A DNA stretch of 64,000 bases from Escherichia coli (lineage in GTDB: Bacteria; Pseudomonadota; Gammaproteobacteria; Enterobacterales; Enterobacteriaceae), in the NCBI GenBank assembly GCA_902500205.1, contig GCA_902500205.1_4868.1. One strand, written 5' to 3'. Position 1 is the first letter of the stretch; each line of letters opens with the position of its first letter. The notes below the pieces were generated by a model. It ran no database searches and was not told where the DNA came from. It was given only the letters and a program-made list of their open reading frames with translations. This document shows, piece after piece, positions 7,585 to 64,000 of the stretch. Position numbers and translations under genes: made by a program.

Positions 7585-10329
7585 TTAGAGGACGTTGTCT
7601 GGGTTGTCGTCGGTAGTTCCTTCACCGCCTTCTGTGCCTTCCGTTCCCTCGGTAGTTGTTTCCGTGGTTTCGGTCGACTCAGTAGTTTCCTCTGTACTAT
7701 CACCACCGGTGCCGTTATCCGTATCGAGATCGAGGTCTAAATCATCGTCACCCCCACCGCCGAGATCCCCATCACCACCGCCGGTGTCACCGCTCGCATC
7801 AAAACCACCACCGAATCCGCCGGAAGCATCGTTAGGATCAAGGTCGGCATTCTTCGCTAACGTTTCCAGTCGCCCGGTGAAACGTTTCGCCAATTGAATC
7901 AGCGTTTTCGAAGCAGCCATCGCTTCATCAGTCATCATGGTGATGTTGTCCTGACGAGAATCATCGTCGTAAACCAGATCGAAGAAGTCGGTTTCAATAC
8001 CTTGTTTACGCAGCCAGTTGCGCGTATAGAAGGATTTGATCATCGTCTTCAGATCGTTCGGGTCCATCGAGATGCCTTCTTGCTGGAGTTGCGCAGCAAT
8101 GTCATCCGTTACAACCAGATCAGCCAGCTTCTCAAAGAACTCCGTACGTTTATCGAACAGCTCCATCTGCGAAGCTGCTGCAGAGGTGTCTGGCGGTGGT
8201 AAGGTTACTTTCATACCGTTGATAAACGCAGCCAGATACTCAGAGACCTTTTTCGTAATCTGGTCAGTAGTCATCCCATTGCCGTTAGCATTGATGTACT
8301 CTGCAATGATTTTAATCATCGCTGATTGCAACGACGGAGAGGCCAACATCCCATTAACTACGTAACGTGTCAGTGGCTTAGAGAGAATCTCTTGCTTCTT
8401 AACAACCTGCTGGGTGACCAGTAACGATTTAGAGAAGATCTGTGAAGCAAACTCGATGTTCTCGGGGGTCATTACCAGGTCAGGGTCAACACCTGCGATG
8501 TGACAAGTACGTCGTAACAGACCTTCGTCGAAATCCTTATCCGGGTATTTATAATCCGGCGTAGTGTCCGACACAGACACTTTGGTACTACCGTAGTAGT
8601 CGTTACCAATAACGTTAAACGCAATACCTGCGTTTGTCGTCATTGCCCAGGTGTCGTTCATGTCCCCCCACATCGGTTGACGACGGTTATAGGAGTTCAT
8701 GATGTCTGTTTTCAGCTGGTCAATTGTTTTCTGACCGTTCATGTCATCTGGTGCCAACTCAATGTCGTACTGCATGTGACGTGCAGAGTTCAACACCGCA
8801 GAGTTCATGGTAGCGAACAACAGCGCCATACGGACAGTAGAGATAACGAACGAGCGTTCGGTAATAGATACACCGATACCATCTTCATCAAAGTCCGTGG
8901 CAAAATAGCAAAGGTTTTCCGCAGGAATATAGATAACCTGCGTATGACGTTTTGCCAGATGGCGCGCCAGCATGATACGGCTGAACGTTTCGGTTACTGT
9001 CATGCTAATCTCAGCACCACCCAACGCCTCACCCAGAGCTTTGGTTAGCTGGTCTTCAGCAATTTCACCATAACGCGCTGTTAAGCGGTTAGCAATGTCT
9101 GGTGTGATTCGGGTTGTGTTGCCCATCCCCAGATTCGCACGGTTGATTGTTGAATCCACCATACCGTCGTTGTTCAGGTAGTTCATGAAGTTCGCATCAC
9201 CGTAAAGTGTGGAGCGCGAGTTAATGAAGTTACCCATTTCGTCAACGATGGCCAGATAACCTATGGGGTTACGAACATCGTCGCCGATAACGAGCGGGAG
9301 TGTGGACTCTGCTGGCAGTAATCGTTCCGTGTATTCGATTTTGTTGGCATCGGAGAAACTCATCTTCGGTACTTCGCCGTAAAGCTTTTGCTCAGGCGTT
9401 TTCTGGTACGCTTCGTTGAGGTCGCCGATGTTGATTAAACCGAGTTTTGCCTTCTCTTGTTCACTGTCTGTGAACTGGTCAGCGTTATACTCTGACGCAC
9501 CTGTCGGCGTAGAAGGTTGTTCATATGCGTACTGCTCTAACTGACCGAACAGGCCGGTGCGAGCATTCTCCTGTGCTACACGGCGATAAGCCTCTGGTAG
9601 CAGGGTAATACGCGGGTTGTCGGTGATAACGATATCCAGGGAAGCTAACATACCGTCTGCTTTAAACGGACTGTTAGGGGCTGCTGCAAAGTTAAGTTTA
9701 ATGGTTTGTGGCTTGGTGGGCTTGTCAGCGCCACGTGCACGACCCAGAATACTTTCTACACCAACCTTCGGTTTGTTTTCACCGCCAATCTTGCCCAGGA
9801 TACCCAACTGACGTTCAAAGAAGTCAGATTGGCTACGGCGCAACGATTCGGTTGCAACAGACGGCTTTAAGCCGAAGAGTTCATCGAATCCGGTATCTGA
9901 AATCAGCAACACCGGGCTCGCGCCTTTGGATTTCAGTGCATCGTAAATCCACTGATACAGTTTGTTGGGTAACTGGCGCGTGTGGTCATGGAATTCACGC
10001 ACAGGTTCCAACAACTGTTGACGCAGGTCGATCGGGATATCAGCCACGTTGTCGTAAATCAGCGTGGTGTTAATCAAATCTTTTGTGGACAGGAGTGAGG
10101 AGGTCGCGATGGTAACAATGACCTCTAACTCAGGGAGCGCATCAAAGATACGTTCGGCATTTTTAACGGTGCGAATGCGGCTACTCGCAATGCCTGTGAG
10201 TTCTGTACGGGTTGGTGTAACGCCGCCATCTTCACGCTTACCGCGTTGCTGCTGAGCCGACGGGCTCGTGGACTTACGCAGTATGGCAGCTACCGCGGGG
10301 TCGCCCGTTAATTTACTAATATCTTCCAT
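7585..10329 (-). CDS. Large protein (914 aa) with acidic low-complexity C-terminal tail; only long minus-strand gene in the window (portal-like candidate, speculative)
   Basis: Uninterrupted 2.7-kb ORF; C-terminus rich in D/G/T/E repeats ('DLDLDLDTDNGTGGDSTEETTESTETTETTTEGTEG'). Confidence 0.8.
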   Translation of the reverse strand: MEDISKLTGDPAVAAILRKSTSPSAQQQRGKREDGGVTPTRTELTGIASSRIRTVKNAERIFDALPELEVIVTIATSSLLSTKDLINTTLIYDNVADIPIDLRQQLLEPVREFHDHTRQLPNKLYQWIYDALKSKGASPVLLISDTGFDELFGLKPSVATESLRRSQSDFFERQLGILGKIGGENKPKVGVESILGRARGADKPTKPQTIKLNFAAAPNSPFKADGMLASLDIVITDNPRITLLPEAYRRVAQENARTGLFGQLEQYAYEQPSTPTGASEYNADQFTDSEQEKAKLGLINIGDLNEAYQKTPEQKLYGEVPKMSFSDANKIEYTERLLPAESTLPLVIGDDVRNPIGYLAIVDEMGNFINSRSTLYGDANFMNYLNNDGMVDSTINRANLGMGNTTRITPDIANRLTARYGEIAEDQLTKALGEALGGAEISMTVTETFSRIMLARHLAKRHTQVIYIPAENLCYFATDFDEDGIGVSITERSFVISTVRMALLFATMNSAVLNSARHMQYDIELAPDDMNGQKTIDQLKTDIMNSYNRRQPMWGDMNDTWAMTTNAGIAFNVIGNDYYGSTKVSVSDTTPDYKYPDKDFDEGLLRRTCHIAGVDPDLVMTPENIEFASQIFSKSLLVTQQVVKKQEILSKPLTRYVVNGMLASPSLQSAMIKIIAEYINANGNGMTTDQITKKVSEYLAAFINGMKVTLPPPDTSAAASQMELFDKRTEFFEKLADLVVTDDIAAQLQQEGISMDPNDLKTMIKSFYTRNWLRKQGIETDFFDLVYDDDSRQDNITMMTDEAMAASKTLIQLAKRFTGRLETLAKNADLDPNDASGGFGGGFDASGDTGGGDGDLGGGGDDDLDLDLDTDNGTGGDSTEETTESTETTETTTEGTEGTEGGEGTTDDNPDNVL

Positions 10330-14591: not shown

Positions 14592-15164
14592 ATGTCGCAG
14601 TCTTTGCAAGAAGCCTCGACGGATGTGTTGGATGTTCTTATCCAGGCGGGCACCAATAAATTAAGCCTGGAGGAGAGTAAACGACTAAAAACAGCCGCCC
14701 AGACCGCTTTGGGAAGTGATGTTGAAATTGATGTCACTAAACCTGCTAACGTGATTCTTACTTCTTTACGCCCCCTCATCCTTGAGCAGGTGGGGAACAT
14801 GGCGAAAACGTTTGAATCGCAAGCAAAAGCCGCAGTAGAAAGCATGGATGAAAAGCTCGCCAAAGAAACGTTATTGACCCTGTGGCCAAATTTGAAAGGT
14901 CCGCAGAAAGTCCTTATCGTTTTGTTGGTGCTGACCACTGTGGTGATTACTGGCGCGATGGCCTGGGACACACACCTGCATTATCCACAAGAGTTAACGG
15001 ATGTGCTGATTGTGGCGCTCTTACCTTTGTTTGCTCAGGCCGTGTTCTTTACATGGCCGATCAAGACGCTTGCTTACAATTCGATGGCCATTGGCGCCAA
15101 AGTCGTTGAATACAAGCTGAATAAGAGCAACGCGAAGCAACAGACTACCGCACCTAAAGAGTAA
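14592..15164 (+). CDS. Hypothetical membrane protein
   Basis: Hydrophobic segments 'VLIVLLVLTTVVITGAMAW' and 'VLIVALLPLFAQAVFF'. Confidence 0.7.
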   Translation: MSQSLQEASTDVLDVLIQAGTNKLSLEESKRLKTAAQTALGSDVEIDVTKPANVILTSLRPLILEQVGNMAKTFESQAKAAVESMDEKLAKETLLTLWPNLKGPQKVLIVLLVLTTVVITGAMAWDTHLHYPQELTDVLIVALLPLFAQAVFFTWPIKTLAYNSMAIGAKVVEYKLNKSNAKQQTTAPKE

Positions 15165-16878: not shown

Positions 16879-17268
16879 ATGATGCGTGCTGTATTAGCTG
16901 TGTTTATAATTTGCGTTACTACGTCAGTATACGCGTTTACTGTTCAGGACTTCCCGCAATACAAACCAATGTGGGAAACTGACGCACCTGTGAAATTCAG
17001 CGACAAAGATGAACCAGTCGTGACAGTGGAGAAGGGTGAGTTTGCCGTGGTCAACTACGGGCGTTCTGAACTGTGTCCGGGCGGTGGCTTTTATCTCGTT
17101 AACACAAAGCGCAAGACGTACCAGCCAATAGATGCCGGTACGTGTTCGTCGAAAGTTAAAGCGACAATTGCCCCGACAGTACGAAGACATCGCAGCGTTA
17201 ATACCCACCAGTTAACTTTTTGGGTAGGTAAAGAAATTTCCGCGCGGTATCCTTTGTACGATTATTAA
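16879..17268 (+). CDS. Small secreted/periplasmic protein (predicted signal peptide)
   Basis: N-terminus 'MMRAVLAVFIICVTTSVYA' resembles a Sec signal peptide. Confidence 0.7.
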   Translation: MMRAVLAVFIICVTTSVYAFTVQDFPQYKPMWETDAPVKFSDKDEPVVTVEKGEFAVVNYGRSELCPGGGFYLVNTKRKTYQPIDAGTCSSKVKATIAPTVRRHRSVNTHQLTFWVGKEISARYPLYDY

Positions 17269-31800: not shown

Positions 31801-32498
31801 TGGCTAAGCAAAAGAAACCCCGTAACAAAAAGTATAACCCGAAAGTTGCCACAGAACGTACGGCACACACCGTCGCTGAAAACGCTCTGAATCGTATCAC
31901 GTTTATCGGCAGTTCGATTCGTCGCCTCGGGCCGTACGCGGGCCGTGGTTTTCACTTTACGGCAAGTCCTCGTATTCGTGCTATCGCCACAGATATGTTA
32001 GTCGGTGGGCTGTTCGACCAACCGCGACCATGGCATCTTTGGGTGATGCACCTCACTGAACTCGACACCGGTGAAATTGTAACAGAAACCGCAGTTGCCA
32101 CACTTGACGATTATACTTTGGCGGACTTCTGCGAACACGCTGAGGAGTTAGTTAAATCGTTACGCCCTGAACAGGAAGAGGGGAAGTATTTCGGTTATGC
32201 ATTTGTGGCTGCACCGAACGAGCGGTACGACTTCAAAGCGGAAGAAGACCAGCTCATTGAAAACTTCATGCATTCTGGACTACTTGATACGTCGTTACAT
32301 CTGTCGGAAGAGCAACAGTTCGTTAGTCGTGCAGAAATGGCAAAGTTACTTGTTGGTTATACTCGGAAGTTTGACGTGACCGTTGAACATGTCAAAGAAG
32401 TACCAGAGATTGTGAGCAAGAAAGACGAGGTGGTACTTCCGGTTGACGAGGTCGTCGGTAAAGTAGCGACTGCGATAGGGGCAACAGGGGATTACTGA
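31800..32498 (+). CDS. Hypothetical protein (232 aa)
   Basis: TAATG stop/start overlap with upstream gene. Confidence 0.75.
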   Translation: MAKQKKPRNKKYNPKVATERTAHTVAENALNRITFIGSSIRRLGPYAGRGFHFTASPRIRAIATDMLVGGLFDQPRPWHLWVMHLTELDTGEIVTETAVATLDDYTLADFCEHAEELVKSLRPEQEEGKYFGYAFVAAPNERYDFKAEEDQLIENFMHSGLLDTSLHLSEEQQFVSRAEMAKLLVGYTRKFDVTVEHVKEVPEIVSKKDEVVLPVDEVVGKVATAIGATGDY

Positions 32499-32707
32499 TG
32501 AATCTACGTTGGCCGATCGTGGCTGCTGTGTTGTTTTGTATCTATATCGCCATCAGCACCAGTACCCGCACTGCAGAACGTCGCGAGACCGCAACCAGTA
32601 CGTTCAGAATGTGTATTGATCGAGTAGACCCGAACAATAGCACTTATCCTGACGCTGTGAACGCGTGTCGCAAAGCGGTTGCTGAGATATTGAAAGAGGA
32701 AAAATAA
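32498..32707 (+). CDS. Small membrane protein (69 aa)
   Basis: TM-like 'IVAAVLFCIYIAISTS'; TGATG overlap. Confidence 0.6.
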   Translation: MNLRWPIVAAVLFCIYIAISTSTRTAERRETATSTFRMCIDRVDPNNSTYPDAVNACRKAVAEILKEEK

Positions 32708-56120: not shown

Positions 56121-57107
56121 ATGGCTTTTACAATTCGTTGGACGAACAATAACCCTGGGGCTTCGACCGTGAAGCTGTACCGCGACACCAAACCTCTGGT
56201 GCGTACGGCATTACCTGAACCTCTGGCAACGTTCACTAACGGGGAAACTGAGTATACTGACCGAACAGCGATACTGGGGACAACGTATTACTACATGACC
56301 ACTGTGACAGTGGGAAGCCGAACACTGTTCAGTCCGCAGAAATCAATTCTGATTCAGAACCGTCGCGGTATCGGCATCGTGACTCCACAGTACGGTGATG
56401 ACCGCTTTGCGTATTACGGGTATGTGGCGTACGGTGAATTGCCTAGCGCGGCTGATTATCCGCCAGGGTTTGTGGCCATTTCTGGATATGACCCAACTGT
56501 TAAGCCGGGCTTGATTAAGTTCCAGCTAGACGGTAAAATTCTGTATCTGTTTAGTGGTCTTCGTGTGAACGGCAACACGCTGTATAGCCGTGATGCGATT
56601 TATAACGCGGGTTTGCTGTACGGTGTGGAGGGACCTGGTCCGGAAGGCGGTCATGGTGATTTACCTGACGTTGACCAGGCTGGGGAGTTTACGTGGTTGG
56701 GTGACCGCTATCGGATGCGCCTGCTGCGCGGGTTAACGCTCGACAGTGAAAGCCCGGTCATGACACTCGACGCACAGTGGAACGGTAAACTCCATGACGC
56801 GTCACCGTATACTGCCGATAGCGAATACAACCGACTCATCTATGGGATAAGTAGCTGGTTCCCAGAAAAGAAAAAAGTGATGTCCCTGATAAAGTGGTCG
56901 AACACCAGCATATTCGGAAGTGGATCGCTGGTGGCAGGCCGTGGGGCGCATTGTCAGGAGTTTGACCCAGACAGTAAGTTGGGGCTGACGCGCGGATGGG
57001 CGGCGGCGGATTCCACTGATACCGTGGATAACCTCCAGCGTATACAACATGTCCCTGCGACCGTGGGCGGTATTTGGATTCCAGTAATCGAGCTTATCGA
57101 GGATTAA
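56121..57107 (+). CDS. Cassette gene B2
   Basis: Paralog of B1. Confidence 0.85.
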   Translation: MAFTIRWTNNNPGASTVKLYRDTKPLVRTALPEPLATFTNGETEYTDRTAILGTTYYYMTTVTVGSRTLFSPQKSILIQNRRGIGIVTPQYGDDRFAYYGYVAYGELPSAADYPPGFVAISGYDPTVKPGLIKFQLDGKILYLFSGLRVNGNTLYSRDAIYNAGLLYGVEGPGPEGGHGDLPDVDQAGEFTWLGDRYRMRLLRGLTLDSESPVMTLDAQWNGKLHDASPYTADSEYNRLIYGISSWFPEKKKVMSLIKWSNTSIFGSGSLVAGRGAHCQEFDPDSKLGLTRGWAAADSTDTVDNLQRIQHVPATVGGIWIPVIELIED

Positions 57108-57109
57108 TC

Positions 57110-58009
57110 ATGCCTATTACATTAAACTTTGCACAACGGAAGCCACAGGCGCTCGATAACATTGAAATCTATCGCAAGACGCCGGGCAACGCCACCATTG
57201 ATGTTAATGCACCGGGAACGCCTCTGGCAACCCTTCCGGGTGACGCTACATCGTACGAAGACAACGCTGTGGAAAACAACACCACTTACCGTTATTGGAT
57301 AGCTGCGGTTAAAGACGGTGAGCGTGTCTTCAACACCCCTACCGCCCAAGGGTTCTTTTTAGACACCGGGCCTGGCCCCCAGAAACTGTTATACGGCGAC
57401 TGGCACGCCGGATACTTTGGAACAGTAACGCCAGCAGAGTTATTCACTAACGCGGAACTGAACAGCCTCGTGGTGAATATGTTCAGTTCCGCCGTTGGTG
57501 CCTGGCATAAGTTCATTTACAAAAACCGTATTCTGTTTATGTCCGATAACTCGATAATATACGCTAGCCCGCAGTTCATTTATAACCAGGGGCTGATGTA
57601 CGGCCAGGATGGCAACGGATATGTGCCGAGCTGGGCTAGTGCACGTAACCAACGCCGCACGGTGACGAAAAACGGTTACGAATACGTGGTGCGCTTGCCG
57701 TATTTGTTCGACTACAAATACTGGACGTCTTTCGTTGGAAGCGGTAACACCGAGTTGTATCTCGACGGTGAGTGGTTTAACACCTTCGCGCGCCTGTACA
57801 ACTACAGTGGGCAGTTTCCGCGCTTTGACGACATTCCGGTCGGTCCAATCGATTCGGTTACTGCCCAACAATCTGCATTCTTTGCGGCTATGAATAACTT
57901 GTCCGCTCAGTGGTACAACCGTCCACCCTACCCAGAGTCGCCGTCATGGGGTAACTACGGTACCGATACAATACGCTCTATTGCGGTACTTGAACTCGTT
58001 CTGCCTTAA
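57110..58009 (+). CDS. Cassette gene C2
   Basis: Paralog of C1; ATG 57110 after 'gagga' (track start 57074). Confidence 0.8.
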   Translation: MPITLNFAQRKPQALDNIEIYRKTPGNATIDVNAPGTPLATLPGDATSYEDNAVENNTTYRYWIAAVKDGERVFNTPTAQGFFLDTGPGPQKLLYGDWHAGYFGTVTPAELFTNAELNSLVVNMFSSAVGAWHKFIYKNRILFMSDNSIIYASPQFIYNQGLMYGQDGNGYVPSWASARNQRRTVTKNGYEYVVRLPYLFDYKYWTSFVGSGNTELYLDGEWFNTFARLYNYSGQFPRFDDIPVGPIDSVTAQQSAFFAAMNNLSAQWYNRPPYPESPSWGNYGTDTIRSIAVLELVLP

Positions 58010-58020
58010 CAGGAGACTTC

Positions 58021-58056
58021 ATGGGATTGTATAGCGCACTTTACCATAACAGCTAA
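58021..58056 (+). pseudogene. Vestigial 5' stub of an A-type cassette gene (11 codons)
   Basis: 'aggagacttcATGGGATTGTATAGC...' mirrors the A2 start 'ATGGGGTTGTATAC...' (both MGLY...); runs into TAA after 11 codons, directly before a terminator. Confidence 0.5.
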
Positions 58057-58088
58057 AAATAGGCCCTTCGGGGCCTATTTTCTTTTTT
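58057..58088 (+). terminator. Intrinsic terminator (TTCG loop)
   Basis: 'aaataggccc-ttcg-gggcctattt' followed by 'tcttttttag'. Confidence 0.85.
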
Positions 58089-58099
58089 AGGACGTTGCA

Positions 58100-59419
58100 A
58101 TGATCAACTATAACAAACCTGTCATGCAACTGGTTTGGGATCAGATTAATCGTGATAACCCGCAGCTCAAGAAACCGCTCAACGCAACCAACGTGGCGTT
58201 ATTACAAGGTCCTTTAACCAATGCCTTGCGCGATGGTCGCAACAGCCGTATCGTGGTAAACGGATTACAGGGTGGTGGTTACAGCGGTAAGATGGACATC
58301 TACTACGACCGCTTAAACCTTTCGCAGTATTTTAAAGGCGTCAGCGTACCGGTTAAAGTACCTTATCGGGCGACGGTCTACCGCGACATCATCGATCGGA
58401 TTTCCGCAGCTTGTGGGTTGGTGCTTACTGCTGACGATTTAACGTATCCTGACAGCCAGTTTGCAATGATCACTGTGGCAACGGGCGATCGGACGGTGGC
58501 GATTAAATCGGATAACCCCGCATTCACGGGTTATATTCCTATTAGCTTTATTCGTGAAGAGCCCAGCTTTGCCGACTTGTACCACACCACCGAAACCGGA
58601 GCTTGGGAACCCATGGATGTTTACAGCACGGTCTATCGACTCGACTGGAGCATGTACACTCAACAGATAATCAATATCCCAATGGGTACCCCGCTGCGAC
58701 TAAACAGTAACTCGTACATGACCCAGTTCATCGCGGCGCTGTCGGCATGGTCGGGCATCCCGTTCACTATCGGTAATGCTGCTACTGATAACCCGTATGA
58801 CCTCTATGGGTATGTCGCTACACGCAATAACAACCCAGGCTTAGACCCTGATATGCGTGGGGAGTACAAATACTGCGTGAAGTTGACGCCACCTGAGGAT
58901 ATGGGTAATCTCCGCCGTCCGTTCTTCTTGCACTTTGGTCCGAAAAATAACGTGGCCTATTTGGCGCAGGAAGAGGACGTCGAGCGTTATGCGCGTTACA
59001 TGAGTTTCCGGGAAACCAGCCCAAATTCGATGAGCGTCACGTTGTATCAAAACGAGTACGTGTTGACTCGGGCAGAATCGCCTGAAACAGCGGATGATTT
59101 AACGGGTTCCCCGTATGGCACTCGATACTGTACCGGGAGTATTCGACGGCTGATGCAACACGCGTTTCCGACCGAAGAGATGTTCCAAGAAAGTATTGCT
59201 AACCGACGTCGGGTACTGTACCACACTGCTTACACCACCACGACATCAGCTATTACTTACCAGGGATTATACCGTAACGGATACCAATCCAAACAAATGA
59301 CGAGCCTCTACTCGAATTACTGTAACTATTTCATCTATTACGACCCAAGCAAAGGCGGCTATATGGTCTACAGTCCATATAGCAAAACCGCCCCGGTCCC
59401 TTGGTATCCACCGCTATAG
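58100..59419 (+). CDS. Fibre-like protein (439 aa) with family N-domain and distinct C-terminus
   Basis: 'GRNSRIVVNGLQGGGYSGKMDIYYDRLNLSQYF'; C-terminal 'YSPYSKTAPVPWYPPL'. Confidence 0.85.
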   Translation: MINYNKPVMQLVWDQINRDNPQLKKPLNATNVALLQGPLTNALRDGRNSRIVVNGLQGGGYSGKMDIYYDRLNLSQYFKGVSVPVKVPYRATVYRDIIDRISAACGLVLTADDLTYPDSQFAMITVATGDRTVAIKSDNPAFTGYIPISFIREEPSFADLYHTTETGAWEPMDVYSTVYRLDWSMYTQQIINIPMGTPLRLNSNSYMTQFIAALSAWSGIPFTIGNAATDNPYDLYGYVATRNNNPGLDPDMRGEYKYCVKLTPPEDMGNLRRPFFLHFGPKNNVAYLAQEEDVERYARYMSFRETSPNSMSVTLYQNEYVLTRAESPETADDLTGSPYGTRYCTGSIRRLMQHAFPTEEMFQESIANRRRVLYHTAYTTTTSAITYQGLYRNGYQSKQMTSLYSNYCNYFIYYDPSKGGYMVYSPYSKTAPVPWYPPL

Positions 59420-59433
59420 ACTAAGGTGCCACC

Positions 59434-61611
59434 ATGTCCTACACTCCTGATTTAGTGGCGACCGTGATTCGGTCGCTCAACCGTAAAAACGCGGTCGCCA
59501 GAGCAGTAGACCCCGCTAACGTACGCCTGGTGTCCGTGGCGCATCGTGACGAAAAAACCCTAGACGTCACACTGACAGGGGGTCCGGGGTATTCTAGTTA
59601 CGGTCAAATTACGGCCCAGGTCACGAAGCAAAATATTGCTGATTATTTCGCTAAGGTTAAGTTGGATGCCATTCCCACTTGTGCGTCCATCCACGAACTG
59701 TTGCCACATTTAGACACTCTACTAGGGATTACCTTTTTAACCGACGACTTTGAAGACCTGCCCATCACTTGGACAAACAATGCTGCGCGCATCACGTTCC
59801 AGGCGAAACAGACAAGTCTTATCTGGTACGGCAGCCAAACGCTAGATGTGATAAACGGTGACGTGGATATCAACACTGTCTACACTGTTACCAATATCAT
59901 TTTCACGCTAAAGGCTGCGAATAAACAGCAGTGGATTAACTTCTACTCTAATGCAGCCAAACGGATCGTGGATCTTGATAAAGTCGATGTCAGCGCCCCG
60001 ATGTCCCCGGAGGATATAGGCCAAACCTCTGCGTATAACAGCGTCGTAGCTTTGACCGCTAGACCGGGGAGCGGGATGTTTGGAACGAAGTATGTGTTCT
60101 TCTCACGTAACAAACTCGAGACATATGCAGGCAAAACCACATACGTCCCGGACGATTTCACCGGTAGCCTGCATGATGCTCTGGCCATCGAGACACTCGG
60201 CATTCGGAGTGTTTTTGATGTAAACGAAATTGCTCCTGTAGAGAACCTGACAGGCGAGTGGCCGAGACAAGTGCAATTGGCACCCGTAGAGGGTTCGTAC
60301 AAAGTCATGGGCAGCGCCACGTTGAATGTGGCACGCTATCAAGATAACGAGCAAACCCTTAACCTGAACTACACAACTACGTCGCAACTTTCGGACAGCT
60401 ACTGGGCCACAACGTTGATCAACCATGCGGCCTGCGGGCGTTTGTTTGTTAACGTGACCGTAGATGCGGGGGCTTTCGTTTATCGCGACAGCAACCTGAA
60501 ACCGACGTTCGTTATCGACGAATTGCCGCAAATTGGCGAGGTGGTTTGGAACTTCGTTAACCGGGGAACCATTCTTGGTCGTGGTGGTTCGGGTGTGGTC
60601 TACTCTATGCCTGCGAACACATCAGCGGACGGAGCTGACGCAATCCACATTAGCGATACCTTCCGTGGCAAAGTCACCATCGAAAACTACGGCACCATCG
60701 CCGGTGGTGGGGGTGGGGGCGACTACTATGCGTTTAGCACCACCAAGATCGGTGGAGCTGGTGGTGCGCCTCTCGGGCCAGGCGCGGCGGTGCCCAGCGA
60801 CACCAATAACCGTAACGGCTTAGCTGGGTCCCGTGACAAAGGCGGTGCTACCCAGTTAGTCGTCGCGCAATTTACCGGCTACCAGAGTCGCTACTATGGC
60901 GGTCCGGGTGGGGATTGGGGCCAGCCGGGACGTTATACAGCGTTCGAGCAATGGAACACCCCGGCTACCGGCTCGCCGGTCTATGTCTACGGTCGTGAAG
61001 ACGGGATGTCATGGACTCGCCCTGGGATGGCAGGCGAAGCCGTCGGTGGGAATAAAAGTATCGTCAACTGGGTATCCGTCGGAACGGTGAAACCGAATGT
61101 CACCGACGAGTACCAAGAGTTCCTCGACTACCTCGCAGATTTAGATGCCAACCGACTGGCTAGTGCGGATGGGATAGATAAAGTCACCGACCCAACCAAA
61201 CCTGTAGTTGTGGAGTTCTTAGGTACGATTATTTCAGGTACGCTGTTCAAAAAGCAAAACATACCCGGCGGTTTGGTGGGAACACCATACGGCGATGCTG
61301 TAGCCAACTTACCAGCCACCACATTGTTTGGTATCATGGCACACTGTGTATCGGAGTTTGATATTGTGCACGACACTTGGCGTTACAACCGCGCGGTAAT
61401 GTTCACGCTAAAACCCGCACCTACCGGGGCGATTAGCCTCGCTGTGGAACGCAACCGGGTGAAATCGGCTACCAGTAGTGCACCGGTGGAGAAGTTCTAC
61501 GTCGATCGCTTCGTGTATTACGATGCGTATCTCGGTAAAATGATGGAATGTAATCCGTATACCAAATCTGCCCCTAAACCGTGGGTGCGGCCAACGATAC
61601 CGTTATCGTAA
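59434..61611 (+). CDS. Large fibre-like protein (725 aa) with Gly-rich segment
   Basis: Family-like N-terminus; 'GGGGGGDYYAFSTTKIGGAGGAPLGPGAAVPS'; C-terminal 'NPYTKSAPKPWVRPTIPLS' echoes the previous gene. Confidence 0.85.
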   Translation: MSYTPDLVATVIRSLNRKNAVARAVDPANVRLVSVAHRDEKTLDVTLTGGPGYSSYGQITAQVTKQNIADYFAKVKLDAIPTCASIHELLPHLDTLLGITFLTDDFEDLPITWTNNAARITFQAKQTSLIWYGSQTLDVINGDVDINTVYTVTNIIFTLKAANKQQWINFYSNAAKRIVDLDKVDVSAPMSPEDIGQTSAYNSVVALTARPGSGMFGTKYVFFSRNKLETYAGKTTYVPDDFTGSLHDALAIETLGIRSVFDVNEIAPVENLTGEWPRQVQLAPVEGSYKVMGSATLNVARYQDNEQTLNLNYTTTSQLSDSYWATTLINHAACGRLFVNVTVDAGAFVYRDSNLKPTFVIDELPQIGEVVWNFVNRGTILGRGGSGVVYSMPANTSADGADAIHISDTFRGKVTIENYGTIAGGGGGGDYYAFSTTKIGGAGGAPLGPGAAVPSDTNNRNGLAGSRDKGGATQLVVAQFTGYQSRYYGGPGGDWGQPGRYTAFEQWNTPATGSPVYVYGREDGMSWTRPGMAGEAVGGNKSIVNWVSVGTVKPNVTDEYQEFLDYLADLDANRLASADGIDKVTDPTKPVVVEFLGTIISGTLFKKQNIPGGLVGTPYGDAVANLPATTLFGIMAHCVSEFDIVHDTWRYNRAVMFTLKPAPTGAISLAVERNRVKSATSSAPVEKFYVDRFVYYDAYLGKMMECNPYTKSAPKPWVRPTIPLS

Positions 61612-61657: not shown

Positions 61658-61689
61658 CCTCTTCCCCACGGGGAAGAGGCTTTCTTTTT
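61658..61689 (+). terminator. Intrinsic terminator
   Basis: 'cctcttccc-cacg-gggaagagg' followed by 'ctttcttttt'. Confidence 0.8.
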
Positions 61690-61716
61690 ATGACCCTATC
61701 AACTCAGGAGGTTATC

Positions 61717-62307
61717 GTGGTCGATCGTTGGAGTAAAGAGGGCATTATTCGTGCCAAAGTAAACATCGAAGCCGGTTACGTTAATAACCCGAAAGATTTG
61801 GGTAAAGCAACGAACCGTGGTGTCACCGAACTCACGGCGCGTGAATATGGCTATAAAGGGGATATGCGTGACCTGAGCTTAGAAATCGCGTTAGACATTT
61901 ACAACAAGCTCTGGTGGCAGCGAATGCGTTTAGACCAGATTATGAAAATGAATGTCCTGCTAGCTGACCGGATGTTTGACTTCGGCATTAACGCAGGACG
62001 CGGTAACTGTATCAAGTCCCTGCAACGTATTCTGAACGTATTAAACCGTCAGGGTAAACTATACGATGATATCGATGCCGATGGTGGTATCGGGCCACGT
62101 ACGTTAACAGCGTTAGAAGGCTTCATCAAAGCCCGTGGGGAAGAGGGCCTGAATCGACTGATGTTCGCTTTAACCTGTCATCAGGTTGCGTATTACACGG
62201 AAATCAGTGAAGGGCGTGAGGATAACGAAGAGTTTACTTACGGCTGGTATGGCCGCGTCTATCAGGAAATGCCAGACTACGTGGCTAAGTTGGGGATGTG
62301 CAAATGA
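61717..62307 (+). CDS. Endolysin candidate: GH108-type muramidase with peptidoglycan-binding-like C-terminal region
   Basis: 'GYVNNPKDLGKATNRGVT...IYNKLWWQ...FDFGINAG...DADGGIGPRTLTAL' fits the GH108/PG-binding arrangement; 'aggagg' SD before GTG 61717 (ATG 61690 alternative). Confidence 0.6.
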   Translation: MVDRWSKEGIIRAKVNIEAGYVNNPKDLGKATNRGVTELTAREYGYKGDMRDLSLEIALDIYNKLWWQRMRLDQIMKMNVLLADRMFDFGINAGRGNCIKSLQRILNVLNRQGKLYDDIDADGGIGPRTLTALEGFIKARGEEGLNRLMFALTCHQVAYYTEISEGREDNEEFTYGWYGRVYQEMPDYVAKLGMCK

Positions 62308-62405
62308 AACAGAATTGGTTTGCTGCCTTAATGAAAGCTATCTGGCGCGCCCTTGTTTTTGCCGCAAGGAGAAAACGTAATGACCCACCGTCCAACTCCG
62401 CCTAA
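62304..62405 (+). CDS. Micro-ORF (33 aa), amphipathic/basic; lysis-accessory candidate
   Basis: ATGA overlap with endolysin stop; MKQNWFAALMKAIWRALVFAARRKRNDPPSNSA. Confidence 0.25.
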   Translation: MKQNWFAALMKAIWRALVFAARRKRNDPPSNSA

Positions 62406-62532
62406 GTTCCCCGAAGTACAAACCGTTCCGGAAACGTATTACGATTCTGGGTTCTTCAAACTATTACGCGCGATCTTCTGTCGGAGGGTAAAACCATGCA
62501 ATACGACAACGACGACTGGCCGAAAGGCTTAA
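62380..62532 (+). CDS. Small ORF (50 aa) with strong SD
   Basis: 'caaggagaaaacgtaATG'; overlaps the next small ORF in another frame. Confidence 0.3.
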   Translation: MTHRPTPPKFPEVQTVPETYYDSGFFKLLRAIFCRRVKPCNTTTTTGRKA

Positions 62533-62588
62533 TGCCCATTTTACTGGGATTAATGGTCCTCACGATGCTCGTGCGTTATATGACGTGA
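62496..62588 (+). CDS. Micro-ORF (30 aa) with single TM helix; holin/spanin-like candidate
   Basis: 'ggagggtaaaaccATG'; 'GLMPILLGLMVLTMLV'. Confidence 0.3.
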   Translation: MQYDNDDWPKGLMPILLGLMVLTMLVRYMT

Positions 62589-62595
62589 GGTCAGT

Positions 62596-63237
62596 ATGGA
62601 AGCACTTAAGTATAAGTTGTTAGAGAAGCCGTGGTTTATCCTCACGGATGATTTCCATTTCGAGTTTACGTTGCGCAGCCTCTATCGTGAACAGACCGGA
62701 ATGGATGCGATGGTAGCATTAGCAGGTGTGCATCCGGATACCCCGTTATGGGTAACGGTACCGAGAGGATTTGTGACGGACCTGGCAAGCATTCCAGAAG
62801 CGTTACGTCCTATCCTGCATCCGGATGGGCCTTGGGCTGCTGCCGCTTGTGTGCATGATTTGTTTTACCAGAAACGTTCATCGGTAGGCTTTTACCCTGA
62901 CACCGTTGAAGGTAATCTATCTCGTGCTTGCGACAAAACATTCGCTGACCTGATGTTCTTACGCATCATGGAGGCATTAGGCGTTGACACCTTTATTCGT
63001 AAGTCCTTCTACCGTGCCGTTCACGAGTTTGGTTGGCCGTCCTATGTAGACGATAACTCTAAGGTGGTTTATAGCCGGCCGGTAGAAAAGACGTTGTCCT
63101 ATAATCGCAACTACCTGTTCTTTAGAACGTCGCGTACGTTAGCGATTCCTGAACACGAACGTGTTGACATTACTAATGGGCAACCGGTAAACGTGCAGTA
63201 TTTGAATATCAAACGTGCGTTCCTGACTACCCCTTAA
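62596..63237 (+). CDS. DUF1353-like protein
   Basis: 'GFVTDLASIP...AAACVHDLFY...ADLMFLRIMEALGV...YRAVHEFGW' matches the DUF1353 pattern. Confidence 0.6.
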   Translation: MEALKYKLLEKPWFILTDDFHFEFTLRSLYREQTGMDAMVALAGVHPDTPLWVTVPRGFVTDLASIPEALRPILHPDGPWAAAACVHDLFYQKRSSVGFYPDTVEGNLSRACDKTFADLMFLRIMEALGVDTFIRKSFYRAVHEFGWPSYVDDNSKVVYSRPVEKTLSYNRNYLFFRTSRTLAIPEHERVDITNGQPVNVQYLNIKRAFLTTP

Positions 63238-63246
63238 GGAGAGAAA

Positions 63247-63762
63247 ATGTTTCATCCGAATCCTGCCAACTTCGCGTTAAAAGAGTTGATGCCGCAGGAG
63301 TACATCGCGAAATACGGTGAAGGTGCTATTCGTTTCCTTAATCCGTTACTGTTAATCTCGCTCCAACAGATTCGTAATCGTTTTGGGCGGATGGTGATTT
63401 TAACCAGTTCCCAGCAACAGCGTAGTCTGCGTACCCTGCAGTTCTTTATTAATCAAGAGAAACCAAAGGGTGGAGATTGGCAAACTCGTGCAAACAAACT
63501 GTACGCCGAATCAGGCAGTATGCATAAATTCGGTAATGCGTTTGATGCAACAATGCTTGATACTCCGTTGCAGAAAGTACACGACTATATTGCCGCGAAC
63601 CCTAACGAGTTTCCGTTTATTCACTTTATCGAGTGCGATATTACCTGGCTACATGTTGACGTACGCAACCAGCCTGATATCACCTTCTGGTCACCGACAC
63701 GTGGTACCGTTAAAGTGGTTAAGCAACAACCCATCGATTGGAGCAAGCTAGTTAAAATCTAA
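63247..63762 (+). CDS. M15-family (YcbK/DUF882-like) zinc peptidase; possible peptidoglycan endopeptidase
   Basis: 'SMHKFGNAFDA' (H-x6-D) and 'FIHFIECDITWLHVDVR' resemble the LAS/M15 metal-binding signature; 'ttaaggagag' SD. Confidence 0.5.
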   Translation: MFHPNPANFALKELMPQEYIAKYGEGAIRFLNPLLLISLQQIRNRFGRMVILTSSQQQRSLRTLQFFINQEKPKGGDWQTRANKLYAESGSMHKFGNAFDATMLDTPLQKVHDYIAANPNEFPFIHFIECDITWLHVDVRNQPDITFWSPTRGTVKVVKQQPIDWSKLVKI

Positions 63763-63844: not shown

Positions 63845-63890
63845 CTTACCCACTCCCGTAAGGGGAGTGGGTAAGCATTATTTATTTTCT
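63845..63890. terminator. Bidirectional intrinsic terminator between convergent genes
   Basis: 'cttacccactccc-gtaa-gggagtgggtaag' flanked by A/T-rich runs on both sides. Confidence 0.7.
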
Positions 63891-64000
63891 TCTAACGGAA
63901 CAATCGTAATCGGAGTAGGAACTTCACCGATAAACCCGCTGCTGCAGCGAAAGAATGTCATCCCTTTACCTTCGCCGGTATACGGGTTCACATCCGAAAA
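63878..64000 (-). CDS. 3' end of a minus-strand gene continuing beyond the window
   Basis: Reverse-complement frame open for 40 codons from the window edge (...GEVPTPITIVPLEENK*), stop at 63878-63880 abutting the terminator. Confidence 0.4.
   Translation of the reverse strand, partial: FSDVNPYTGEGKGMTFFRCSSGFIGEVPTPITIVPLEENK

Follow-up and report, generated by a model that had tools for sequence, protein, structure and literature searches.

A candidate late lysis operon in SPN3US-like jumbo phages that links a TtsA-type muramidase to a phospholipase A2-like DUF1353 protein

Near the end of a 64,000-nucleotide stretch of DNA deposited under Escherichia coli (GenBank assembly GCA_902500205.1, contig GCA_902500205.1_4868.1; the whole stretch is hereafter called the window) lies a gene module, at positions 61717-63762, that corresponds to the gp156-gp158 region of the Salmonella jumbo phage SPN3US (SPN3US_0156, SPN3US_0157 and SPN3US_0158 in GenBank JN641803). 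Across the ~3 kb around the module, the top-listed matches are SPN3US-like jumbo phages (genus Seoulvirus), with 95.8-98.6% identity. With a confidence only somewhat above even, we favor the reading that the module is a terminator-insulated late lysis operon, in which a TtsA-type muramidase (gp156), a TtaP-type phospholipase A2 (PLA2; gp157) and an LAS peptidase (gp158) await a breach of the inner membrane. The most informative part of the module is gp157, a member of the protein family DUF1353.

All of these genes are already in databases, where RefSeq and Pharokka-type labels read ‘endolysin’ for gp156, ‘tail assembly chaperone’ for gp157 and either ‘hypothetical protein’ or ‘endolysin’ for gp158; the functional reading appears to be new. 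The original prediction, made from the letters of the window, had described a lysis-like module with two different types of peptidoglycan hydrolase. This description is borne out by family and fold assignments, which identify a GH108 muramidase in gp156 and an LAS/M15 peptidase in gp158.

Results

Organization of the module

Every open reading frame (ORF) of the module is encoded on the plus strand and is preceded by a Shine-Dalgarno sequence. The features of the region are as follows (aa, amino acids; TMD, transmembrane domain).

61658-61689, plus strand: terminator-like hairpin between gp155 and the module, with a 9-bp G+C-rich stem, the loop ACGG and a T-run
61689-61694, plus strand: TATGAC motif, candidate late promoter at which the phage non-virion RNA polymerase would start transcription
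61717-62307, plus strand: gp156, GH108 muramidase with a PG_binding_3 domain, 196 aa, GTG start after AGGAGG
62304-62405, plus strand: micro-ORF o1, 33-aa cationic amphipathic peptide
62380-62532, plus strand: micro-ORF o2, 50 aa, with its own AAGGAG ribosome-binding site
62496-62588, plus strand: micro-ORF o3, 30 aa, single TMD
62596-63237, plus strand: gp157, DUF1353 protein and TtaP-like phospholipase A2 candidate, 213 aa, without signal peptide
63247-63762, plus strand: gp158, divergent LAS/M15 zinc peptidase (predicted), 171 aa, without signal peptide
63845-63875, no strand assigned: bidirectional terminator hairpin with a 13-bp stem, which closes the module and is common to the convergent lipoprotein gene gp159

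The ATG of o1 overlaps the TGA of gp156 (ATGA), and o1, o2 and o3 overlap one another. Both boundaries of the module have equivalents in the phages phiEaH2 and Machina and in an uncultivated lineage (L024), which carry a hairpin before the endolysin gene and a bidirectional hairpin after the module's last gene. In 10 of 11 related lineages, the stretch from the terminator to the endolysin start keeps the motif TATGA[ACT] amid diverging sequence. In phage phiKZ, late promoters consist of 5′-TATG-3′, and the non-virion RNA polymerase starts at the G (PMC4666361). Because of this correspondence and the conservation of the motif, we infer that the module is a late transcription unit. No sigma-70 promoters of note are found near the module, as expected for a phage that has its own RNA polymerases.

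The same region bears on the start of gp156. GenBank and RefSeq place it at an ATG (61690) that sits on the T-run of the terminator and inside the TATGA motif, whereas the GTG at 61717 is preceded by AGGAGG at 61706-11. For these reasons the GTG, which the original prediction had chosen on good grounds, is probably the true start, and the public annotation probably adds nine spurious residues.

The DUF1353 protein resembles a phospholipase A2

The protein gp157 matches Pfam DUF1353 (PF07087) with 62.9 bits, compared with a cut-off of 22.5. The original prediction had recognized this family and had missed where the homology points, which is to phospholipases A2 of the TtaP type. The sole characterized DUF1353 member is TtaP, whose gene adjoins that of the GH108 muramidase TtsA in the typhoid toxin islet; TtaP has been shown experimentally to be a phospholipase A2 that uses a His70/Asp85 dyad and the neighboring Asp71, and it is distantly related to the group XIV secreted PLA2s represented by 1LWB and 4AUP (PMC11525133). 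Catalytic candidates in gp157 are H87 (62854-56), D88 (62857-59) and D118 (62947-49), and all three are invariant, together with the motif GFVTDxAS, in an alignment of 35 homologs. Short DUF1353 members carry the second Asp at His+15, exactly as TtaP does, and in the jumbo-phage subgroup an insert of 16 residues separates the HD motif from this Asp. The likeness between gp157 and TtaP was drawn from their shared Pfam family and the published residue positions of TtaP.

Fold comparison returned a fungal PLA2 as the best structural match for gp157 and revealed a PLA2-like helical catalytic core. Only this approach was productive; PDB sequence searches with gp157 and gp158, conducted with single sequences and with family profiles, yielded no meaningful match. 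On the basis of its family, residues and modeled fold, gp157 is likely a phospholipase A2 of the TtaP type.

A screen of the gp157 sequence found no signal peptide. By comparison, many bacterial chromosomal DUF1353 proteins carry Sec, Tat (RRxF/L) or lipoprotein signals, and others have long N-terminal extensions. The hosts of the signal-bearing proteins (loci L102-L151) include Alphaproteobacteria, Bermanella and Nitrospirae, among others. These proteins were collected by scanning bacterial genomes with the pattern [AV]P[RK]GFVTDL, a narrow query that yields mostly alphaproteobacterial loci and loci from metagenome-assembled genomes; it returned no Salmonella and hence did not retrieve the TtsA-TtaP locus. 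The distribution of signals suggests that the family is largely extracytoplasmic in bacteria. Such signals would fit an action outside the cytoplasm, and by analogy the signal-less phage versions resemble endolysins that depend on a holin.

Two predicted peptidoglycan hydrolases

Three lines of comparison place gp156 among GH108 endolysins. It matches Pfam Glyco_hydro_108 (E=9e-18) and PG_binding_3 (E=6e-19), it matches the endolysin PHROG 315 (E=5e-39), and it aligns over its full length to the solved structures 6v3z, which is Sen1395 (E=1.7e-41), and 6v40 (E=5.5e-39). The latter entry is deposited only as ‘PG_binding_3 domain-containing protein’, and we take it to be TtsA, whose published numbering its residues fit. 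The catalytic residues of TtsA are Glu14, Asp19 and Thr28 (PMC6996933). In the alignment to the solved structures, gp156 has E18 where TtsA has its Glu, T32 where TtsA has its Thr, and N23 at the position of Asp19; N23 is the residue that Sen1395 also has there, and D27 of gp156 aligns with the conserved Asp of the DD/DK pair. Overexpression of Sen1395 has been described as halting growth. A sequence screen of gp156 identified no hydrophobic segment. We regard the protein as a soluble, putative muramidase endolysin of the GH108/TtsA type, predicted to need a membrane lesion to reach its substrate.

The second hydrolase, gp158, is more divergent. Its match to Peptidase_M15_3 scores 16.8 bits, under the cut-off of 23.2, and its assignment gains from its family: among 19 members, 13 match Peptidase_M15_3 (best E=6.8e-8) and six match Peptidase_M15_4. 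The protein also matches PHROG 894, labeled ‘endolysin’ (E=2.8e-26). Residues R62, H93, G96, D100, D131, W134, H136 and D138 are invariant in the family alignment, and H93, D100 and H136 are the predicted zinc ligands. They fall in the motifs SMHKFGNAFD (H93, D100) and WLHVD (H136, D138), which correspond to SxHxxGxAxD and WxHxD, patterns that we take to be signatures of LAS zinc peptidases. A structural model of gp158 has a pLDDT of 94, and its top Foldseek matches are LAS peptidases, with weak E-values. From residues and model, gp158 is predicted to be a divergent LAS/M15 zinc peptidase with the LAS/hedgehog fold and intact metal ligands. Vibrio phages of the KVP40-like and phiVC8/VP5-like groups carry homologs with 25-31% identity; some of these homologs are annotated as endolysins, and their genomic context is uninformative.

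Three micro-ORFs between the muramidase and the DUF1353 gene

The original prediction had listed three overlapping, unannotated micro-ORFs as small membrane ORFs. They are present and they overlap, whereas their novelty is partial: o3 is annotated in phage SPLA5c and o1 in phiEaH2, o1 matches PHROG 25143 (E=4e-12), and none of the three is annotated in the GenBank or RefSeq records of SPN3US. The membrane assignment has to be revised, as only o3 carries a transmembrane segment and is the sole membrane-spanning product of the module. The product of o1 (MKQNWFAALMKAIWRALVFAARRKRNDPPSNSA; 33 aa) has a net charge of +6 and a hydrophobic moment of 0.53 (0.53 to 0.61 across orthologs). The product of o2 (50 aa, net charge +6) has the amphipathic core GFFKLLRAIFxRRV, which is conserved in the divergent Seoulvirus STsAS, in phiEaH2 and in L018, and an N-terminal part of variable length. 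Both are cationic amphipathic peptides with predicted helices. The product of o3 (MQYDNDDWPKGLMPILLGLMVLTMLVRYMT; 30 aa), whose ORF begins 189 nt downstream of gp156, has an acidic N-terminus (DNDD) followed by the transmembrane segment LMPILLGLMVLTMLV, which has a Kyte-Doolittle value of 2.58 over 15 residues.

These small ORFs are retained in relatives whose flanking proteins share just 60-80% identity. Specifically, o1 is kept in STsAS, phiEaH2, L018 and the L021-24/L030 lineage, and o3 is conserved in STsAS. The ratio of nonsynonymous to synonymous differences per site (pN/pS) in the coding frame is 0.17-0.40 for o1 and 0.24 for o3 (versus STsAS, pS=1.0, pN=0.24). Synonymous sites of the micro-ORFs are near saturation (pS 0.75-1.0, with pN 0.15-0.31). 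The in-frame ratios are low, whereas both alternative frames are interrupted by stops and have similar pN and pS values. On this comparison, all three micro-ORFs are genuine genes subject to purifying selection.

Phages of the Machina, ChrisDB and Kwan type carry one different single-TMD micro-ORF in the same slot. Since relatives have either a different TMD micro-ORF or none at this location, the space between the endolysin and DUF1353 genes appears to be a variable site for small membrane-active peptides.

With respect to known lysis functions, o3 shares with holins the possession of at least one TMD and a location beside an endolysin gene. However, it is 30 aa in length compared with the usual ~60-220 aa, it ends in LVRYMT, and it has no match in Pfam or PHROG. 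As the original prediction had noted, the module contains no holin of normal size. The o1 and o2 products resemble disruptins in being small, strongly cationic, amphipathic-helical and encoded in a putative lysis cassette. Among o1-o3 there is no lipobox, and the module encodes no spanin of the TMD-coiled-coil kind. We considered o2 as an o-spanin and ruled it out, given the missing lipobox and Cys residues that are not conserved.

Association of DUF1353 with lysis genes across phages

Seoulvirus, Erskinevirus, Machinavirus and Wellingtonvirus all share the order endolysin-[micro-ORFs]-DUF1353. What flanks the pair differs: tail-fiber genes in the former two genera, and radical-SAM/DUF4376 genes in the latter two. 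Overlapping DUF1353 and M15 ORFs are kept in L021-24 and in the CR5/Derbicusvirus group, where no endolysin gene is adjacent.

Linkage extends to unrelated phages. The Fusobacterium phage FNU_1P has the order M15 endolysin...DUF1353-holin and Fnu1 has DUF1353-x-amidase; the Pseudomonas phage Bjorn has lysozyme-DUF1353-terminase and Cygsa01 has DUF1353-endolysin. Among IMG/VR contigs we observed Amidase_3-TM-DUF1353-Phage_holin_4_1 (L038; TM, transmembrane gene), DUF1353-Phage_lysozyme (L063), DUF1353-Peptidase_M15_4 (L083), endolysin-lipoprotein-DUF1353 (L081) and a holin gene at position -3 (L055). The type of endolysin in these cassettes varies among amidases, T4-type lysozymes, PHROG-90 endolysins and M15 peptidases. 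The association of DUF1353 with lysis genes is recurrent, and it is not universal. Family counts in a scan of 115 neighbors of DUF1353 genes are too fragmented to quantify enrichment. The simple ORF caller used gave no result for seven loci and is unreliable in very AT- or GC-rich contigs.

A separate observation concerns Cygsa01 (L098, 801-3722), a 166-kb phage, in which a gene for a GDSL-like lipase/acylhydrolase lies two genes upstream of the DUF1353-endolysin pair. This gene represents a second type of lipid hydrolase in such a neighborhood.

Other lysis-like genes in the genome

The closest fully annotated relative, SPLA5c (OR413585.1), which is annotated with PHROGs, has no gene called holin or spanin. 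Its sequence at 181-190 kb (loci L155) nevertheless contains genes that resemble another lysis-like set, in dispersed form. Four tiny membrane ORFs in a row (181435-182127) encode products of 63 and 82 aa with two TMDs each and of 43 and 35 aa. A transglycosylase with an N-terminus that resembles a signal or signal-anchor-release (SAR) sequence is encoded at 184582-185304. At 189503-190501, genes for a 169-aa TMD protein and a 159-aa Pro-rich lipoprotein are adjacent, which is the architecture of a two-component spanin. This set lies 35-45 kb from the module, outside the window, and its genes are annotated as hypothetical and match PHROGs of unknown function. The claim that the micro-ORFs are the only membrane-protein candidates therefore holds inside the module and fails for the genome, which in SPLA5c has holin-sized, SAR-like and spanin-like genes.

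It follows that the phage is probably not spanin-less. We had considered the phospholipase as a replacement for a missing spanin, and this idea was downgraded in view of the TMD protein-lipoprotein pair and the holin-sized ORFs of SPLA5c and of an Rz1-like lipoprotein beside DUF1353 in L081. Because a spanin-like pair is encoded elsewhere in the genome, gp157 is most likely an accessory that would speed or complete the breakdown of the envelope, and not the sole step at the outer membrane.

Within the window, other predicted membrane or exported proteins are encoded at 14592-15164 (190 aa, two TMDs), 16879-17268 (129 aa, signal peptide) and 32498-32707 (69 aa, N-terminal TMD). These match only PHROGs of unknown function, and none was recognized as a holin.

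Genes and assemblies around the module

Upstream of the module, gp154 and gp155 are members of the DUF7941 family of virion paralogs. Genes of the gp153-gp155 type (window positions 57074-61611) have N-terminal DUF7941 and C-terminal PHROG 6409 modules in common, which identifies them as paralogs, and gp155 (59434-61611) has a glycine-rich domain like that of the T4 Gp38 adhesin (Pfam GP38, E=1.5e-18) that suggests a receptor-binding tail-fiber tip. Publications on SPN3US assign the paralog family, up to gp154, to the head.

Downstream, the homolog of gp159 lies on the minus strand at 63888-64000 and runs off the end of the window; the full gene is present in L001 at 8889-9380. It encodes a predicted outer-membrane lipoprotein of 163 aa (MKRLFIVFAIINLLAG/C) that has no C-terminal TMD and matches PHROG 9559, of unknown function. 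The gene is conserved beside the module in the L024 lineage, and its product could act in exclusion or as an envelope factor. As a lipoprotein without a TMD partner, gp159 was also considered as a unimolecular spanin and was ruled out because the C-terminal TMD is missing.

Six SPFM records (LR535901, LR535904, LR535907, LR535908, LR535911 and LR535913) yield tblastn matches to gp157 and gp158 that are split into 3-7 pieces, and their deposited proteins match over just 11-15% of the length. These assemblies appear to be rich in frameshift errors around gp157-gp158.

Discussion

A proposed sequence of events

Late in infection, the non-virion RNA polymerase of the phage would initiate transcription at the TATG motif just past the upstream hairpin. 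The resulting operon transcript would give rise, by tightly coupled translation, to three envelope-degrading enzymes and three micro-proteins. Because none of gp156, gp157 and gp158 has an export signal, these enzymes are expected to build up in the cytoplasm. A breach of the inner membrane, which could be the work of o3, of o1 and o2, or of holin-sized proteins whose genes lie outside the module, would then let them out. After the breach, gp156 would cut glycan strands and gp158 would cut peptide stems or cross-links, as judged from their families. By analogy with the biochemistry of TtaP, gp157 would strip sn-2 acyl chains from phosphatidylethanolamine and phosphatidylglycerol in the inner membrane and in the inner leaflet of the outer membrane, and the lysophospholipids and fatty acids released might weaken both. 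The peptides o1 and o2, by their resemblance to disruptins, may add an attack on the outer membrane.

Evidence against a lysis operon and competing explanations

Several observations weigh against a lysis operon. The holin-sized, SAR-like transglycosylase and spanin-like genes at 181-190 kb of SPLA5c could constitute the primary lysis system and leave the module a secondary role. In CP81 and SRILMA the DUF1353 gene is beside genes for nucleotide metabolism, in RSL2 and several IMG/VR lineages it is beside tail-fiber genes, and in pVa-21, as in CR5, no endolysin gene adjoins it. The phage pEa_SNUABM_6 has no micro-ORFs between its endolysin and DUF1353 genes, so these ORFs must be dispensable for the core pair. 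Deletion of ttaP in S. Typhi was reported with no envelope or secretion phenotype. In virion proteomics of SPN3US, 2-3 spectra of gp158 were detected in some preparations and none in tailless particles. Finally, the survey of gene neighborhoods consisted of targeted scans of hand-picked neighbors, with no formal null model.

The proteomic data and the tail-fiber neighbors might instead indicate a tail or entry module, in which gp157 is an assembly chaperone for the tail or its fibers, gp158 is a low-copy, tail-associated peptidase used during infection, and the muramidase is adjacent by chance. Such a view accords with the label of PHROG 1158, ‘tail assembly chaperone’, which gp157 matches (E=3e-66) and which many GenBank records copy, with the position of the module after the tail-fiber-like genes gp154 and gp155, and with the fact that DUF1353 directly follows a large tail-fiber gene in the unrelated loci L054, L059, L065, L066, L074 and L076 and in RSL2. 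However, a literature search for an experimental basis of the chaperone label found none. Such a chaperone should be co-transcribed with, and adjacent to, the tail or tail-fiber gene that it serves, whereas a terminator and a promoter-like motif lie between gp155 and gp157. The endolysin-DUF1353 pair is intact in Machinavirus and Wellingtonvirus, where it lies away from tail-fiber genes, and in Machina, Kwan and ChrisDB the DUF1353 gene comes after the endolysin gene and not after a fiber gene. Lysis cassettes follow tail-fiber genes in many phages, which makes the position ambiguous. Invariant catalytic-type residues and a PLA2-like core would be unexpected in a chaperone, and the sole characterized DUF1353 member is an enzyme. 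The original prediction had named, as a refuting result, virion proteomics that show the M15 protein to be structural; the few spectra of gp158 are equivocal on this point, and a second, later study of SPN3US judged gp158 a probable or non-specific contaminant. None of gp156, gp157 and gp159 is listed in the spectral-count table of SPN3US virions. We consider a tail or entry function quite improbable.

A role in remodeling membranes without lysis, such as the dismantling of the lipid vesicle in which nucleus-forming jumbo phages initially keep their injected genome, the shedding of outer-membrane vesicles or of debris that would trap progeny, or superinfection exclusion, would leave lysis to the transglycosylase, holin-like and spanin-like genes located 35-45 kb away. 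Chimalliviridae form a lipid-bounded early vesicle (PMC10541120), and TtsA-TtaP act in Salmonella without cell lysis. We find such a role improbable, since DUF1353 is widespread in small phages that form neither a nucleus nor a vesicle and that carry it between the genes for endolysin and holin, a TATG motif of the late type gives no hint of an early function, and gp156, gp157 and gp158 all lack targeting signals. It is also unlikely that the module is a lysis operon whose micro-ORFs are only couplers that set the ratio of gp156 to gp157, or lineage-specific filler, with no activity on membranes. The micro-ORF complement does vary by lineage (o1+o2+o3, o1+o2, o1 alone, one TM ORF or none), the ORFs overlap to the extent that the ribosome-binding site of o2 lies inside the RRKR codons of o1, and Pfam and PHROG searches reveal no homology to characterized lysis proteins. 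Against this, amino-acid sequence is conserved while synonymous sites are saturated, the physico-chemistry is maintained as either a cationic amphipathic helix or a single TMD with an acidic N-terminus, and in other genera the slot holds single-TMD micro-ORFs of unrelated sequence, a pattern that suggests selection for a small membrane peptide there.

Implications

A lysis operon as described above can be extended to a broader proposal, which we hold to be possible but doubtful, that DUF1353 proteins are widespread, unrecognized PLA2s that depend on a holin and attack envelope lipids in concert with the endolysin, as a lipid-directed arm of lysis in phages of diderm hosts, that TtsA-TtaP was domesticated from such a system, and that the enzyme works here with two disruptin-like peptides and a 30-aa membrane peptide. 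Among the papers searched, none ties DUF1353 or a PLA2 to a phage lysis cassette. How jumbo phages lyse their hosts has received little description, and a review of their biology from 2026 names neither holins nor spanins. The findings suggest that phages also use a phospholipase to burst the host. If gp157 is an active phospholipase used in lysis, a lipid-hydrolyzing enzyme would join the scheme of holin, endolysin and spanin or disruptin in Gram-negative hosts, and the ‘tail assembly chaperone’ label of the PHROG 1158 family would be corrected. The signal-less enzymes and the cationic peptides of 30-50 aa are candidate permeabilizers of the outer membrane that might be paired with endolysins against Salmonella. 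In addition, the micro-ORFs illustrate that standard phage annotation misses conserved micro-proteins.

Comparison with known systems

Compared with the group XIV secreted PLA2s of Streptomyces violaceoruber (1LWB) and Tuber borchii (4AUP), gp157 has neither a signal peptide nor the conserved disulfide cysteines, and it has large extra N- and C-terminal regions, such that the match is confined to the core. At the level of the operon, the module is like the S/R/Rz/Rz1 genes of phage lambda in that clustered genes, expressed late, would each be aimed at a layer of the Gram-negative envelope, with a soluble endolysin that awaits a membrane lesion. It differs from the lambda cassette in having no holin of normal size, no lipobox and no TMD-coiled-coil spanin, and in adding a putative phospholipase and an LAS peptidase. 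A precedent for a second, lipid-directed hydrolase beside an endolysin is provided by the LysA/LysB pair of mycobacteriophages, in which the second enzyme breaches an outer lipid layer. LysB is a serine esterase/cutinase that acts on mycolyl-arabinogalactan in mycolata hosts, and its fold and substrate are unrelated to those of the His/Asp PLA2s.

The cassette of phage phiKT comprises the endolysin gp27, the disruptin gp28 and the holin gp29, and its gp28 complements a spanin defect (bioRxiv 10.1101/515445). Here too, cationic amphipathic peptides are encoded beside the endolysin, and o1 (33 aa, +6) and o2 (50 aa, +6) are comparable to gp28 (56 aa, +7) and to LL-37 (37 aa, +6). According to its authors gp28 has no homologs, and the likeness is one of size, charge, amphipathicity and position, not of homology. 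Unlike in phiKT, which lacks a spanin, no canonical holin follows here and a spanin-like pair is encoded elsewhere in the genome.

The most interesting lead is the parallel with TtsA-TtaP, which combines the same two families: gp156 aligns over its full length to the Sen1395/TtsA-type structures and gp157 has the His-Asp...Asp set of TtaP. The two systems differ in that the phage genes form an operon with micro-ORFs between them and an extra LAS peptidase, in that gp157 is longer than TtaP (213 versus 125 aa) owing to beta-rich extensions at both termini and the insert between its HD motif and second Asp, and in that TtsA-TtaP serve the non-lytic release of a toxin. For this release, TtsA needs added perturbants of the outer membrane, such as cationic peptides or bile salts, and the same muramidase family is encoded here with a predicted phospholipase and cationic peptides. 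The parallel leads to a hypothesis for TtaP in the typhoid toxin islet, in which the wall would be opened by TtsA and the outer membrane loosened by TtaP. In evolutionary terms, the TtsA-TtaP pair looks as though it had been domesticated from a phage pairing of muramidase and phospholipase.

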